Assembly (NCBI GenBank): GCA_963778505.1 | Contig: CAVZUH010000004.1 | Coordinates: forward strand, 1,061,633-1,125,632 | Length of the DNA: 64,000 nt | From: an uncultured Actinomycetota bacterium | GTDB lineage: Bacteria; Actinomycetota; UBA4738; HRBIN12 | Direction of reading: 5' to 3' | Part shown: positions 50,044 through 54,886 of the stretch, piece by piece | Layout: the number at the start of each line of letters is the position of its first letter | Numbering within the stretch: the first letter of the stretch is position 1 | Notes under the pieces: generated by a model | What the model was told of the DNA's origin: nothing | Database searches by the model: none | What the model saw: the letters and a program-made list of their open reading frames with translations, nothing else | Position numbers and translations under genes: made by a program

Positions 50044-50486
50044 ATGAGCCAGGTCGAGACCACAGCCAGATCGCCCGTCCAGACCGTCAAGCGCCATGTC
50101 GAGTCGTTCCTGCAGGGACTTCGAGTGGTCCTGGACGAACGCCGTGCTCTTCTCGATGGCCCTGCTGTTCTTCCTGCTGATCACGAGCTCGGTGATGCCG
50201 TCGTGGTGGATGTACTACGCGGAGCAGAAGCTCGGCTGGCAGGGCCCGACGGACCTCGAGGCGTTCCTGCGGGATCCGTTCAGCACGAGCGCGCCGTTCT
50301 TCTCGGCGGAAGGGTTCCTGTGGCTCTCCTACGAGGCGCACCTCATGCTCCGGGACGCGATCGCGATGGGCCTCACGACGGGCCCGATCATCTCGGTGCT
50401 CGTCGATCTCGGCCCTGCTGCAGAACTGGCGGCGCAAGCTGCGCGGAGAGTCCGGCAACGTCCGACCCACCGGTGGGTACCGGTAG
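50044..50486 (+). CDS. Hypothetical membrane protein, first gene of the Rieske/cytochrome b operon (apparent indels)
   Basis: Two hydrophobic segments; ends NWRRKLRG...TGGYR before the ferredoxin start. Confidence 0.55.
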
Positions 50487-50503
50487 GAGGCCAGAGAAGA
50501 CAG

Positions 50504-50900
50504 ATGCCCTTCACCAAGACCGAGGTCGACATCCACGAGGATTACACGCTCGAGGCGGTCGACCCTGCCTGGCTCGCACAGGGCGTGAAGTCGCCGAAGC
50601 ACCTGATGCTGGACCCCGACAACTGCATCTTGTGCCGGGCGTGCGAGGACGTCTGTCCGTGGAACTGCATCTTCATGCTCTCAACCGGACATCGTCGAGG
50701 ACTCCGAGACGCCGGCCTCGGAGGCCGAGGTGCTCACCTCGTCCGCGATCTTCGTCGTGGACGACAACGCGTGCACGCGGTGCTCCGTCTGCGTGGACCG
50801 GTGCCCCACGGACACGCTGTACTATGCGCGGCTGCCGGAGGGTTCCGGCGGCAGAAGGACGATGGCCGAGGTCCCGACGTCCCAGGCGGCGGAGGAGTGA
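50504..50900 (+). CDS. 2x[4Fe-4S] ferredoxin-like protein (one indel near 50685)
   Basis: CILCRACEDVCP and CTRCSVCVDRCP; no signal peptide. Confidence 0.85.
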
Positions 50901-50928
50901 TCGTGCCGACCGCGAGAGGGGGAACCCG

Positions 50929-51700
50929 TTGAAGTTGAAGCCCCCGTCGCCGAGCGAGCTCGGCGATCGTCTCCGGGAGACCGAGGTCTGGAAGTCGATC
51001 TTCCGGCCGGGCTCGATCTTCCGGAAGGGCTACAAGGACACGTCGCGCGACCGCGCGCTCGCGACGATGAACAACGTGCTGTACCACCTCCACCCGGTGA
51101 AGGTGAAGCGTCACGGGCTGAAGCTGACCTACACGTTCTGCCTGGGCGGCCTGTCGTTCTTCCTGTTCATCCTGCTCACGGTCACCGGGCATCTTCCTGA
51201 TGTTCTTCTACCGGCCGATGGCCGACATCGGCGGCGCGCCGGCCTACACCGACATGCAGAACATCCGAACGACGGTGTTCTTCGGCGACTTCGTGCGGAA
51301 CCTCCATCGATGGGGTGCGCACCTGATGGTCTTCAGCGTCACGCTGCACATGGCGCGAGTGTTCTACACCGGCGCCTACAAGCCCCCGCGCGAGTTCAAC
51401 TGGGTCGTCGGCGTGATCCTGCTCTTCCTCACGCTCGGCCTGTCGTTCACGGGCTACCTGCTCCCGTGGGACCAGCTGGCGATCTGGGCCGTGACCGTGG
51501 GCACCTCGCTCGCGGGCTACTCGCCGTTCATCGCGAAACAGGCGAACTTCCTGCTGCTGGGCGGCGTGGTCGTCGGACCCGAGACGCTGCTGCGCTGGTA
51601 CACGCTCCACGTCCTCGCCCTTCCGTTCGTCTTGGTGCTGTTCCTGTCGGTCCACTTCTGGCGGATCCGCAAGGACGGCGGGATCTCGGGACCGCTCTAG
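50929..51700 (+). CDS. Cytochrome b6-type subunit of a Rieske/cytochrome b complex (one indel near 51190)
   Basis: TFCLGG, LHRWGAH...[17 protein letters not shown]-x14-H, GISGPL C-terminus. Confidence 0.92.
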
Positions 51701-51710
51701 GAGGCCGGTG

Positions 51711-52547
51711 ATGGCACGCGACGACACCCCACTCGATCAGGAGGTCTTCGACCGCGTCCTCAAGGAGCAGCTCGACGCCGGCACGGACCGGCGCGTGGCC
51801 GACGGTCGCGCCCGGTCGGCCGCCGTGCGGGCCTACAAAGCCGCGCATCCCGAAGAGGAAGGCGCTCCGCCCGCGGCGGCCGCCGGTGGCAACGGAGAGG
51901 CTCCGGCGCAGGCGCCCGCGGCGGCAGCAGCCGTTCCGGCGGCCGCTGCGCCGGCCGGCCAGGCCGCCATGGTGGCGGCCGCACCCGTGAGCGCCCCTAC
52001 GAGAACCGCGCCGCTCCCGACAGGCAACATCCCGACGCCGAAGAAGGGAGCACCGGACAAGCACCGGCTGCTGGCGCTGGTGCCGCCCGAGGGGATCCAG
52101 CGGGTCGAGCGCGAGCAGGGCGACCGGGTGAACGTGTGGCCCCACCTGCTGATCGAAGAGTTCGTGGCGATGTTCGTGCTCTCGGTGGGCCTGGTGGTCT
52201 TCTCCACCTTCGTGAACGCCCCGCTGCGGGAGCTGGCCAACGCCAACCTCACGCCGAACCCGTCGAAGGCGCCCTGGTACTTCCTCGGACTCCAGGAGCT
52301 GCTGCGCTACTTCCACCCGATGGTCGCGGGGATCTCGATCCCGACCTTCATCCTCGTCGGACTCGCGGCGGTGCCCTTCGTCGACCGGAACCCCAGCACC
52401 CGTCCCGGCGACAGGAAGATCGCGCTCACGCTGTTCACGATGATGTTCATGTTCGGCGCCGTGCTGACGATCATCGGCTCGTTCTTCCGCGGCCCCGGCT
52501 ACAACTGGGTCTGGCCGTGGGCCCAGGGGGTGTTCTTCGAGCTGTGA
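51711..52547 (+). CDS. Subunit IV-type (split cytochrome b C-terminal) protein with N-terminal extension
   Basis: WPHLL, TPNPSKAPWYFLGLQELL (PEWY variant), PFVDRNP. Confidence 0.88.
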   Translation: MARDDTPLDQEVFDRVLKEQLDAGTDRRVADGRARSAAVRAYKAAHPEEEGAPPAAAAGGNGEAPAQAPAAAAAVPAAAAPAGQAAMVAAAPVSAPTRTAPLPTGNIPTPKKGAPDKHRLLALVPPEGIQRVEREQGDRVNVWPHLLIEEFVAMFVLSVGLVVFSTFVNAPLRELANANLTPNPSKAPWYFLGLQELLRYFHPMVAGISIPTFILVGLAAVPFVDRNPSTRPGDRKIALTLFTMMFMFGAVLTIIGSFFRGPGYNWVWPWAQGVFFEL

Positions 52548-53279
52548 GGACGCTCGCCGTGTCCGCCGGACTCGTCGCTGCGATCGCCGCCCTCCTGGCG
52601 GTCGTGATCTTCGCGATCGCGTTCTTCGTCGATCTCCCTCCGGTCCTACCAGCGGCAACAGGATGCCGTCGCCGCCACCCGGGCGCGAGCCGCGGGCCTC
52701 CCCACGCCTCCCGACACGGGCGCCGGCCGTGTCGCGTCGAGACTTCTTCCGGAAGTCCTTGATCACGTCGCTCCTCGTGTTCGCCGCCGCACTTCGGGGG
52801 CGCGTCGATCGCGTTCCTGTGGCCCAGCCTCAAGGGGGGCTTCGGCGCGCTGATCGACGCGGGCCCGTTGGACGAGATCAGGGCCGCCGTCAGCTCGGGT
52901 GAGCCGTTCTACGTCGGGACGGGCCGCTTCTACATCGTGCCGTACAACGGCACCCCGAAGGGCGGCATCGACTACGCGAACGAGGGTGTGGCCGGCGAGG
53001 GGATCATGCCGCTCTACCAGCGGTGCGTGCACCTCGGCTGCCGGGTGCCGTTCTGCGGCCAGTCGAAGTGGTTCGAGTGCCCGTGCCACGGCTCGAAGTA
53101 CAACCAGGCCGGCGAGTACCAGCTCGGCCCCGCCCCGCGCGGCATGGATCGCTTCCACATGGAGATCGTCGGACGGCCGGGTGATGGTCGACACCTCCGA
53201 GGTGGTCCTCGGACCTCCCCGCGGAACCGACACGATCGACCAGCCGCCGCAGGGCGCCTTCTGCGTGGCGCCGGGATAG
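52544..53279 (+). CDS. Rieske 2Fe-2S subunit (apparent indels)
   Basis: Tat-like SRRDFF; CVHLGC and [16 protein letters not shown]. Confidence 0.9.
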
Positions 53280-53294
53280 GAGCGGACGAGAGCG

Positions 53295-54007
53295 ATGCTC
53301 GCACTGTCGACGACGGCCGGGATCGGGCTCGCGATCGCGGGCGGCGCTGATCACGGTCGCCGCGATCGCCGGGCTGGCGCTCCGGCAGCGGACCCGCGAG
53401 ACGGGACCGGACATCCCCGACGCGCTGCAGCCAGGACCGTCCGACGCCGCCCTCGAGACCCCGCTGCTCCAGAAGCTCCAGGGCTGGAGCGTGGTGATGC
53501 TCGCGTTCTTCGTCGTCTGGATCCCGGCGACGTGGATCTTCGAGCCGTCGACGAACCTGAACCAGGAGCACGAGCTGAAGGAGCTGGCGCATCGACCGCG
53601 GCGAACGGTCGGTCCTGCCGTTCTCCGAGGAGAACCAGCTCGGGGTCGGGATGCGTCCGCTGCCACGGACCCGATCTGACCGGCGGCATCATCCAGACGG
53701 GCGCCACGTTCGCGTTCCCGCCGGACCTGACGACGGTCTGCGGCGGCGCCGTCGACCGGCCACGCCGGCGATCTACTCGATCGACGACATCTACCAGGTC
53801 ATCTCGGAAGGCCGGGCGAACGCGATGCCCTCGTGGAGCATCCGGTTCGAGGGCGCGCTCGACGACCAGCAGATCAACGACATCGTGCGTGTACCTGGTG
53901 GATCTCTCCTCGGAGAACGTGCCGTTCGAGGACAACGTCTGCCTGAACGAGGACGCCTCCGCCGCGGGCCCTCGAGACACCCGACCCGCAACCCGAGGGA
54001 CCCGTGA
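53295..54007 (+). CDS. Membrane-anchored monoheme cytochrome c (apparent indels)
   Basis: CVRCHG, NAMPSWS...[10 protein letters not shown]. Confidence 0.82.
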
Positions 54008-54742
54008 TGGAGAGCTGCCTCGGCTTCAACGTCGACTGCGGCATCCTCGTCAAGGGCGCCGGCGTGGTCCTCATGGCGTTCACGCTGTTCGTAGGGAGCG
54101 TGTACCTCATCCTGACCGCCGTCCTCGGCCGCTGGATGGGCTACCTCGTCGCTGATGGTCGCCTTCTCCGGGTGGATGATCGTGCTCTCCGCGCTCTGGG
54201 CGTTCGGCTTCTACTCGCAGGGTCCGGACACGCCCGTGAACCTCGGGCCGCGCGGAGCGGAGCCCGCCTGGGTCCCGATCCTCGCATCGACCGGTGAGAC
54301 GAGCGATCGGTACGAGGCGTTCCGCAGCTACCCGAGCGAGCCCTGGAAAGAGCCGGAGCAAGGGCAGAGCCGCCGAGGTGCAATCGGTGACCGGGATCGT
54401 GACCGACTTCCTCGCCGAAGAGGCCAACCTGGAACTCGAGATCCGCCATACGGACCCGAGGGCGGTGACCGGCGTCGACTTCGCCGTGGACGACCTTCAC
54501 TTCGCGAACGTCAGGCGGCGCCCAGCTCGCCGTCGCCGCAAGCCCACTTCCTCGATGGGGGACCGCTCTGGACGGTGTCCCTGTACTACGACGAGGGAAG
54601 CGTCCCGAAGTACTCCTACATGTTCCTCGCTGGCTCGGTGATCCTGTTCGCGGTCCATCTGCCGCTGCTCGACATCGCCGAGCGCAAGCGCAAGGACTTC
54701 CTCACCGGCGGGGCGGCCCCGCCCTGGTACGGACCCGCGTGA
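54007..54742 (+). CDS. Hypothetical membrane protein (apparent indels)
   Basis: 3 TM segments; start abuts the cytochrome c stop. Confidence 0.6.
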
Positions 54743-54777
54743 TGGGCGATCCGGCGATCGGGAGAGGAGGTGGGAGC

Positions 54778-54886
54778 GTGCTAGCGTCAGGTACCACTGC
54801 TCGATCAGGGAAGCATCCAGTTCATCCTCCTCGGAGTGATGATCCTGGTCGTCCTGTTCGTGCTCTGGATCACGATCGCGAAGTAG
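54778..54886 (+). CDS. About 35-aa single-TM peptide (needs one indel corrected)
   Basis: GAGGAGG RBS 7 nt before GTG; MLA/QVPLLDQGSIQFILLGVMILVVLFVLWITIAK. Confidence 0.5.

Follow-up and report, generated by a model that had tools for sequence, protein, structure and literature searches.

A b6f-like Rieske/cytochrome b operon with a conserved two-cluster ferredoxin gene in an uncultured actinobacterium and its relatives

Introduction

The exchange of electrons between ferredoxin and the haem-ci side of b6-type complexes is an old open question that underlies both photosynthetic cyclic flow and the NAD(P)H-producing bifurcation proposed for anammox bacteria, and ferredoxin-to-haem-ci input has long been debated for the b6f complex (PMC5600118). 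Here we describe a b6f-like Rieske/cytochrome b complex whose eight-gene operon includes a two-cluster ferredoxin gene directly upstream of cytochrome b6. The operon lies in a 64,000-nucleotide (nt) stretch of contig CAVZUH010000004.1 (assembly GCA_963778505.1), from an uncultured Actinomycetota bacterium; this whole stretch is called the window below.

According to the available text of PMC4122944, iron-sulfur (Fe-S) modules on cytochrome b are known from anammox-type complexes and a few fused proteins. The former are exemplified by the Rieske/cytochrome b complexes of Kuenenia stuttgartiensis (Kuste4569-4574 and Kustd1480-1485), which are reported to carry an NAD(P) oxidoreductase subunit (PMC12954380; PMC5600118); the mechanism set out in the accessible part of PMC12954380 is a proposal with AlphaFold3 models and not an experimental structure. 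The APWY clade was defined by Kao and Hunte in 2014 from cytochrome b alone, at a time when no member had been characterised; as far as the available text of that paper goes, the clade includes Geobacter ExtO/ExtP/ExtQ, one Acidimicrobidae strain (Ilumatobacter) with split cytochrome b is listed and placed in the APWY or the PEWY-cyt c clade, and a ferredoxin subunit is not mentioned (PMC4122944). This clade probably falls within subfamily G of Dibrova et al. 2017, judging from the accessible part of the latter (PMC5600118). The Geobacter Ext cluster is described in the available text of PMC5877670 with multihaem cytochromes and no ferredoxin. The QcrCAB (bcc) complex of Mycobacterium and Corynebacterium has neither a CxGG motif nor a ferredoxin, and the operon described here has both. 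To our knowledge, neither the Bacillus QcrABC complex nor the heliobacterial complex has an operon-encoded ferredoxin. In Bacillus, as we understand it and in part from the available text of PMC4122944, a single protein combines subunit IV with cytochrome c, and PDWY stands where the present operon has APWY.

Within what these partly available sources report, the cytochrome b type found here is already published as the APWY clade and the conserved ferredoxin appears to be the new element. In the literature, the supplements of PMC4122944 and PMC5600118 aside, we found no account of Acidimicrobiia, Nitriliruptoria or related Actinomycetota in which the main respiratory complex III has a conserved ferredoxin that stands alone. 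An operon-encoded, highly conserved ferredoxin in cultured aerobes (Aquihabitans, Ilumatobacter, Iamia and Euzebya relatives) makes the question testable in an ordinary respiratory complex, and the textbook QcrCAB fails to describe whole Actinomycetota classes that are abundant in soil and water.

A ferredoxin gene conserved directly upstream of cytochrome b6

A six-frame reading of positions 49950-55150 recovered eight coding units on the forward strand (50044-54886), in the order that the initial annotation had listed; their coordinates (Table 1) come from placing the intact proteins encoded at L003, the nearest locus, on the window. The comparison set comprised the best 80 loci of at least 599 matches to the b6 piece in a collection scan, many of them truncated by contig ends. 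These loci come from Actinomycetota, Nitriliruptoria (Euzebya, Egibacteraceae) and Acidimicrobiia, the last including Ilumatobacter, Iamia, Microthrix and the complete genome of Aquihabitans sp. G128. Most of the 80 loci keep this gene order, and the arrangement is far beyond chance. Same-strand gaps in L003 are about 19 nt between g1 and the ferredoxin gene, about 29 nt between the latter and b6, and about 10 nt between b6 and subunit IV, while the m7 start overlaps the cytochrome c stop (TGATG) and in L003 comes directly after it. The genome (2.74 Mb in four contigs, completeness score 77%) holds one cytochrome b, that of the operon; very probably, this is a real operon and encodes the genome's sole complex III.

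Table 1 Features of the operon and its immediate flanks in the window, with one-base insertions relative to L003
Feature	Position	Strand	Insertions	Evidence and reading frame
g1, membrane protein, ~127-145 amino acids (aa), two predicted helices, familyless	50044..50486	+	2	three frames in the window
Ferredoxin, 2x[4Fe-4S], 131 aa in relatives	50504..50900	+	1	Fer4 on both halves; one frameshift at 50683
Cytochrome b6, ~256 aa	50929..51700	+	1	PF00033 6.7e-35, PF13631 1.1e-37; one frameshift at 51190
Subunit IV, 279 aa, APWY	51708..52547	+	0	PF00032 7.4e-8; intact
Rieske [2Fe-2S] protein, twin-arginine	52559..53279	+	4	PF00355; four frameshifts
Cytochrome c, membrane-anchored monohaem class I, CVRCH	53295..54007	+	8	PF13442/PF00034 on the intact L007 ortholog; eight frameshifts
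m7, membrane protein, ~245 aa	54007..54742	+	4	no family assigned; four frameshifts
Micropeptide, 35-38 aa, one helix	54776..54886	+	1	tblastn; one frameshift at 54786
Rex-like redox-sensing repressor gene, convergent with the operon	54900..55603 (3' end approximate, frameshifted)	-		PF06971 7.1e-18 on 55289-55636
Rex-operator-like palindrome, TCGTGAA-N4-TTCACGA	49946..49963			in the gap between the operon and the divergently transcribed ccdA, ~80 nt before g1

The initial annotation had staked its proposal on the conservation of the ferredoxin and accessory genes beside cytochrome b, and for the ferredoxin and its upstream neighbour such conservation was found: in 78 of the 80 loci the ferredoxin gene, both halves of which were matched by tblastn, is the immediate upstream neighbour of b6, and in 70 it is itself preceded by a g1-like gene. 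The two loci that lack it are L029, where the contig stops just before b6, and L022, an orphan b6 to which we return below. Two CxxCxxCxxxCP motifs make up the protein, and all eight cysteines are invariant in 47 of 47 orthologs. Only Fer4-type domains were assigned to the whole sequence (Fer4 7.8e-13, Fer4_7 2.6e-12); Pfam searches of the intact L007 ortholog set returned no Fer4_20, FAD or NAD(P) domain, and a specific NCBIfam model was not found, the best rows being NuoI and FwdF, far below their cut-offs. A sequence scan detected no signal, no twin-arginine motif and no hydrophobic segment, and the ferredoxin is predicted to be cytoplasmic.

In an exhaustive profile search with the ferredoxin, 33 cluster representatives reached E ≤ 1e-30 and 306 reached E ≤ 1e-10. 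Orthologs ranked first, ahead of polyferredoxins, and these were followed by longer proteins (about 600 aa) whose C-termini give the match. The best relatives of solved structure are FwdF-type polyferredoxins (7bkb_K at 1.4e-20; 5t5i_F), and the 5t5i entry is stated in the available text of PMC12954380 to have served for placing clusters in the anammox NAD(P) reductase subunits. The AlphaFold2 model of the ferredoxin (predicted local distance difference test (pLDDT) 59.9) was too poor for a fold search.

A split b6-type cytochrome b with cytoplasmic extensions

The b6-type character of the cytochrome b, which the initial annotation had read from a handful of motifs, holds across the comparison set. 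Cytochrome b6 and subunit IV are separate genes (PF00033/PF13631 and PF00032, respectively), and the b6 pieces of the window, 100% and 99% identical to L003, contain TFCLGG, H-x13-H, H-x14-H and a GGISGPL end. The motif xCLGG, in the form (F/L/Y)CLGG, is present in 78 of 78 relatives, as are both histidine spacings (H-x13-H in helix B, H-x14-H in helix D), and the CxGG cysteine is, at motif level, a putative covalent ligand of haem ci. Hydropathy at a strict threshold gave three clear helices each in b6 and subunit IV, the fourth b6 helix being left unresolved by this crude scan.

Both proteins are extended on the n-side (cytoplasmic side) of the membrane. Cytochrome b6 has a conserved N-terminal extension of about 47 residues, and the ExtP model (NF040969 cytb_ExtP), which it reaches at 290.3 bits against a cut-off of 290, aligns to residues 48-254 only. 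Subunit IV has three helices preceded by a cytoplasmic N-terminal extension of about 130 residues with a conserved RLL-x-VP...D-x-V-x-x-WPH; weak hits of memb_ExtQ and cytb6_f_IV cover its residues 144-272 only. Pieces of subunit IV were matched by tblastn in 77 of the 80 loci, and the APWY motif of the quinol-oxidising (Qo) site is found in the window and in 68 of 72 relatives. Just before helix A, b6 residues 52-62 (L003 numbering; about 51080-51115 in the window) form an n-side motif that is invariant in 43 of 43 b6 orthologs. Its invariant histidines are H53/H55 (L003 numbering), and the first is retained in the flavoprotein-type paralogs described below; by analogy with the Kuenenia AlphaFold3 models in the accessible part of PMC12954380, such a histidine might bind an extra inter-monomer haem b.

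The Rieske protein has an extra N-terminal helix, SRRDFF, CVHLGC and CPCHGS. Its core was matched by tblastn in 67 of the 80 loci, and 63 of 67 relatives have both cluster motifs and a twin-arginine motif. In place of cytochrome f, the operon encodes a class I cytochrome c (PF13442/PF00034) as c-type subunit. That it is monohaem, as first annotated, is true of the window and of 14 of 62 relatives, all in the window's close clade; 48 of the 62 have two CxxCH motifs, with two truncated loci that may be undercounted.

Comparison with described complexes

The complex shares with the anammox complexes, as the available texts describe them, a b6-like four-helix cytochrome b with a subunit-IV-like protein, a CxGG motif, and an operon-encoded, predicted cytoplasmic Fe-S protein of the ferredoxin-type [4Fe-4S] wire kind with FwdF polyferredoxins as structural relatives; in addition, sister genomes within Actinomycetota have a flavoprotein-linked operon of similar general design. 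It differs in that its Fe-S protein is a 131-aa two-cluster ferredoxin without NAD(P)/FAD domains, in its acceptor (a mono- or dihaem class I cytochrome c in the window and its relatives, hexa- or octahaem in anammox bacteria), in a subunit IV of three helices where the anammox counterpart is reported with five, and in being the sole such complex of an aerobe with a caa3-type oxidase.

With the b6f complex (PetB/PetD/PetC/PetA) it has in common the split into b6 and subunit IV, the histidine spacings, CxGG, the ...GISGPL C-terminus and a Rieske protein of b6f type (NF010001 1.7e-16, below cut-off). Unlike b6f, it has a class I cytochrome c in place of cytochrome f, APWY in place of PEWY and the long n-side extensions on b6 and subunit IV (~47 and ~130 residues); g1, m7 and the micropeptide have no detected likeness to PetG/L/M/N, the ferredoxin is operon-encoded, and the complex is respiratory, not photosynthetic. 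APWY, the split cytochrome b, the CxGG-type motif and the ExtP score would place the locus close to the APWY clade, although the window and its relatives have (F/L/Y)CLGG where that clade usually has WCMGG in the available text of PMC4122944. The suggestion in the initial annotation that similar subunits occur in Geobacter Ext and Acidimicrobiia operons stands for the Acidimicrobiia and for cytochrome b itself; it does not extend to the ferredoxin, which the Ext cluster lacks in the accessible description (PMC5877670), nor do the ExtP/ExtQ models have the n-side extensions found here.

The firmicute b6c complex (Bacillus QcrABC) and the heliobacterial complex resemble the present one as menaquinol-oxidising split b6-type complexes of Gram-positive bacteria, with haem ci in those complexes. 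QcrCAB belongs to the same phylum, and it too oxidises menaquinol, feeds an aa3-type oxidase without soluble cytochrome c and has a Rieske protein with more than one helix. The contrast with QcrCAB drawn at first sight is nevertheless upheld by the models: QcrB is unsplit, and the b6 scores 109.7 bits against a cut-off of 500 (bc1_QcrB_actin, NF050120); QcrC is dihaem, and the window scores 15.2 bits against a cut-off of 200 (bc1_QcrC_actin, NF050122).

A paralogous operon linked to a flavoprotein

The ~600-aa relatives of the ferredoxin are glutamate-synthase-beta-like NAD(P)/FAD flavoproteins with Fer4_20, Pyr_redox_2 and a C-terminal Fer4_7 dicluster domain, the last 32-43% identical to the operon ferredoxin. 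In 10 of 10 loci examined from other Actinomycetota, the gene that directly follows the flavoprotein gene encodes a paralogous b6 (48-57% identical), accompanied by a paralogous subunit IV (43-51%). When the flavoprotein P0109 was searched in 301 genomes of the phylum, full-length orthologs were found in 5 of the 16 other genomes of the window's family, and all 5 of these family members, when tested, also keep the ferredoxin-type operon. This paralogous operon is the design reported, within the available texts, for anammox bacteria and subfamily G (PMC5600118; PMC12954380).

An N-terminal extension is common to both types of b6, and the RLL...WPH segment ahead of the first helix is common to both types of subunit IV. 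Since these extensions are kept in both operon types and lie outside the ExtP/ExtQ models, whose alignments begin only at residue 48 of b6 and residue 146 of subunit IV and which derive from a Geobacter cluster without an Fe-S partner, they appear to go with the Fe-S partner. One paralogous locus (L098 6816-13036, G157) reads GltD-like flavoprotein, b6, short subunit IV, twin-arginine Rieske protein, cytochrome c and then a large sulfocyanin-type cupredoxin protein; the paralogous type is also seen in L087-L097.

Proposed role of the complex and its ferredoxin

The complex is most likely a menaquinol:cytochrome c oxidoreductase that works in the forward direction in aerobic respiration, because a caa3-type oxidase is present and no other cytochrome b was found in the genome. 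On the comparative evidence we slightly favour the ferredoxin being a bound and wired subunit of this complex. It would then be a stable n-side subunit for which the extended N-termini of b6 and subunit IV, perhaps together with g1, serve as a docking platform. Its clusters would be within electron-transfer distance of haem bn/ci, and through this side port the low-potential chain would be connected to a cytoplasmic partner. The stand-alone ferredoxin may represent a minimal Fe-S arm, which the paralogous and anammox complexes would continue into an NAD(P)/FAD flavoprotein. One tentative elaboration, possible but not favoured, is a built-in low-potential branch of complex III in large groups of aerobic Actinomycetota: the second menaquinol electron, ordinarily recycled at the quinone-reducing site, would leave via haem bn/ci to the [4Fe-4S] clusters and reduce a cytoplasmic acceptor (quinol-driven bifurcation that yields low-potential reductant), or electrons would be fed in reverse into the quinone pool, with the stand-alone ferredoxin perhaps the ancestral form.

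Several observations weigh against a bound, wired ferredoxin in the genome's sole complex III. Its binding and electron transfer are deduced from comparison of sequences. A match to P0109 at E ≤ 1e-30 was found neither in the window's genome nor in that of its one congener, so this search gives the ferredoxin no cytoplasmic partner. The flavoprotein-linked b6 lacks the CxGG cysteine and has R-L-G-F/Y instead, which implies that the Fe-S arm is not specifically tied to haem ci; it may instead reach haem bn, or an additional haem of the kind modelled for anammox. The ferredoxin is closer to the flavoprotein domain (39%, E 1e-15) than to the genome's own NuoI (29%, E 2e-11) by a modest margin, and the homology argument therefore leans on gene position. 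In L022 the b6 gene stands next to unrelated genes, without a ferredoxin or the remainder of the operon. At the completeness score given above, the genome has room for a second complex. RNA contigs that span two genes, reported below, are not proof of a single transcript. Lastly, ferredoxin-b6 fusion proteins were considered as Rosetta-stone evidence and rejected, as most of those inspected have out-of-frame linker text or are single-contig read-throughs. Many Fer4+Cytochrome_B proteins exist in public collections, as a search for longer proteins revealed, among them apparent ferredoxin-b6 or g1-ferredoxin fusions with linkers that resemble out-of-frame translation (P0002, P0014, P0037-P0041, P0047); these look mostly like gene-calling read-throughs on error-prone assemblies, although P0004 and P0031 could be genuine in-frame ferredoxin-b6 fusions and were not used as evidence. 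A complex prediction from our own alignments (b6, subunit IV residues 105-278 and ferredoxin) scored 0.01 against a mark of 0.32, was run without controls and counts as evidence neither way.

An alternative interpretation is that the ferredoxin is expressed together with the complex without being one of its subunits, and serves specifically in assembly or maturation or as a free electron carrier, for example as a cytoplasmic source of reducing power for haem ci attachment or cofactor insertion. The protein has no membrane segment and belongs to no specific family, operon linkage fits this role equally well, and we know of no haem-ci ligation system described for Actinomycetota. We consider it rather unlikely, however, because a like domain forms part of the NAD(P)/FAD flavoprotein encoded upstream of b6 paralogs that lack the haem-ci cysteine, which points to electron wiring and away from haem-ci maturation, and because the conserved n-side extensions of b6 and subunit IV resemble a docking platform.

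The ferredoxin might instead be a bound redox or oxygen sensor that gates the quinone-reducing (Qi) site or the stability of the complex without catalytic flux. [4Fe-4S] clusters are common oxygen and redox sensors, the operon is apparently tied to redox sensing via Rex, and the absence of a P0109 match from the genome would suit a protein with no partner enzyme. Each cluster, however, has all four cysteine ligands, as in ordinary electron-transfer clusters, with no variation across 47 sequences, and the closest relatives of the ferredoxin are electron-wire domains, which makes a sensor improbable.

A complex that works mainly in reverse or outside respiration, with electrons from the high-potential side or from ferredoxin reducing menaquinone, was proposed for APWY complexes by Kao and Hunte in the available text of PMC4122944, and the APWY motif of the window and of nearly all relatives scored is in keeping with it. 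Reverse flow as the main role is nonetheless highly improbable: this is the only cytochrome b, with a caa3-type oxidase and cytochrome c biogenesis genes adjoining, and if quinol:cytochrome c activity did not run forward, nothing would supply the oxidase with electrons.

Frameshifts and assembly state

Most window genes of the operon switch frame repeatedly, subunit IV being the sole intact open reading frame. Relative to L003, with which it shares 95% nucleotide identity, the operon stretch has 22 one-base insertions and one deletion; 21 of the 22 insertions are in coding sequence, distributed as in Table 1. When L012 is used as the reference, most of the extra bases recur at the same sites or a few bases away. 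We read these frameshifts as assembly errors and not decay, because all eight genes are open in L003, L007 and L012, the protein pieces of the window are 83-100% identical to L003 with one exception at 70%, the neighbouring COX1, ResB, CcsB and Rex genes show the same kind of breakage, and the extra bases at 50113, 50406 and 51187 are absent from short-read contigs of near relatives. That the operon is a decaying pseudogene cluster with real frameshifts is hardly credible: 22 one-base insertions within 4.8 kb and the completeness score would speak for it, but the changes are nearly all one-base insertions with very few substitutions, the pieces keep the identity just given, the genome's only cytochrome b sits in the operon, the adjacent genes are broken likewise and the short-read contigs of near relatives lack the extra bases.

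The density of frameshifts looks uneven along the window: the first 27 kb contain long uninterrupted reading frames (500-827 aa), nearly every gene at 28-56 kb is broken, and in this broken part G+C climbs to 0.70-0.73. The gene for the cytochrome bd oxidase, which lies on another contig (C2 58413-59678), is stop-free. This unevenness suggests a context-dependent basecalling or polishing error, and gene calls for this genome are unreliable pending polishing of the assembly.

Small membrane proteins

The three small membrane genes, annotated at first as accessory subunits, differ in how far they are conserved, and none of g1, m7 and the micropeptide belongs to a Pfam or NCBIfam family. The g1-like gene is the one widely kept: in the 70 loci already mentioned it was detected with L007-type queries in 19 and Acidimicrobiia-type queries in 51, directly upstream of the ferredoxin gene and in most loci by 6-20 nt, the two types being weakly alike (E 0.005). 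Conservation is narrower for m7, detected in fewer loci than the ferredoxin, and for the micropeptide, matched by tblastn in 10 of the 80 loci, all in the window's close clade. The m7 protein is laid out as two N-terminal helices, an extracytoplasmic alpha/beta domain and a C-terminal helix. With its AlphaFold2 model (pLDDT 87), Foldseek against the PDB returned nothing at E ≤ 0.001 (best template modelling (TM) score ~0.14); matches from a wide VIA-align search were generic helical hairpins only (Z ≤ 8.0), were rejected, and no fold was assigned.

Respiratory context, regulation and expression

The window is a respiratory supercluster with two complex I sets, a polyprenyl synthase gene, COX3, COX1, a COX2-cytochrome c fusion, CcsB, ResB, CcdA, the operon and the convergent Rex-like gene. 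The genome's one COX1 is in the window at about 43.9-45.3 kb. The caa3-type oxidase genes (42737-46965, reverse strand) lie about 3 kb upstream of the operon and comprise COX3, COX1, which is broken into four frame pieces, and a COX2 that ends in a cytochrome c domain. This oxidase is likely the acceptor of the operon's membrane-anchored cytochrome c.

The Rex-like palindrome upstream of the operon and the rex-like gene downstream suggest that the operon is probably under Rex (NADH/NAD+) control. At no more than three mismatches to what we take to be the Rex operator consensus, the window contains 3 palindromes of this type where 0.12 would be expected; that at 49946-49963 matches in 16 of 18 positions (two mismatches). 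A promoter scan found no sigma-70-like promoter, and the terminator-like hits of a terminator scan fall within coding sequence and were set aside.

None of the sequencing runs contains more than 0.22 of the sampled words, the RNA runs at most 0.10, and contigs from these runs therefore represent relatives and not the window strain. In three RNA or RNA-labelled runs (soil, ice and rhizosphere), contigs with 85-99% likeness to the window extend over all 30 bins, and of the seven gene junctions six are bridged: g1/ferredoxin, b6/subunit IV, subunit IV/Rieske, Rieske/cytochrome c, cytochrome c/m7 and m7/micropeptide. At the seventh, ferredoxin/b6, the contig extends about 17 bases into b6, below the 31-letter rule. 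These contigs weakly support expression of the operon in relatives, DNA carry-over being possible.

Beyond the Rex-like gene, at 55978-58681 on the forward strand, are a sigma-factor-like open reading frame, an anti-sigma-K (RskA_C) gene and a DUF4331 protein, with no evident tie to the operon. The two further Rex-like palindromes are at 19915-19932 and 36870-36887; one heads the nuoA-led complex I set and the other lies just upstream of a FAD-binding gene that precedes the second complex I set. The two complex I (nuo) sets stand back to back on the reverse strand (11261-19969 and 21000-35498) with the polyprenyl synthase gene between them; among the open reading frames scanned, the first set is apparently without NuoE-type subunits, and the second has a 2Fe-2S thioredoxin-like (NuoE) piece.

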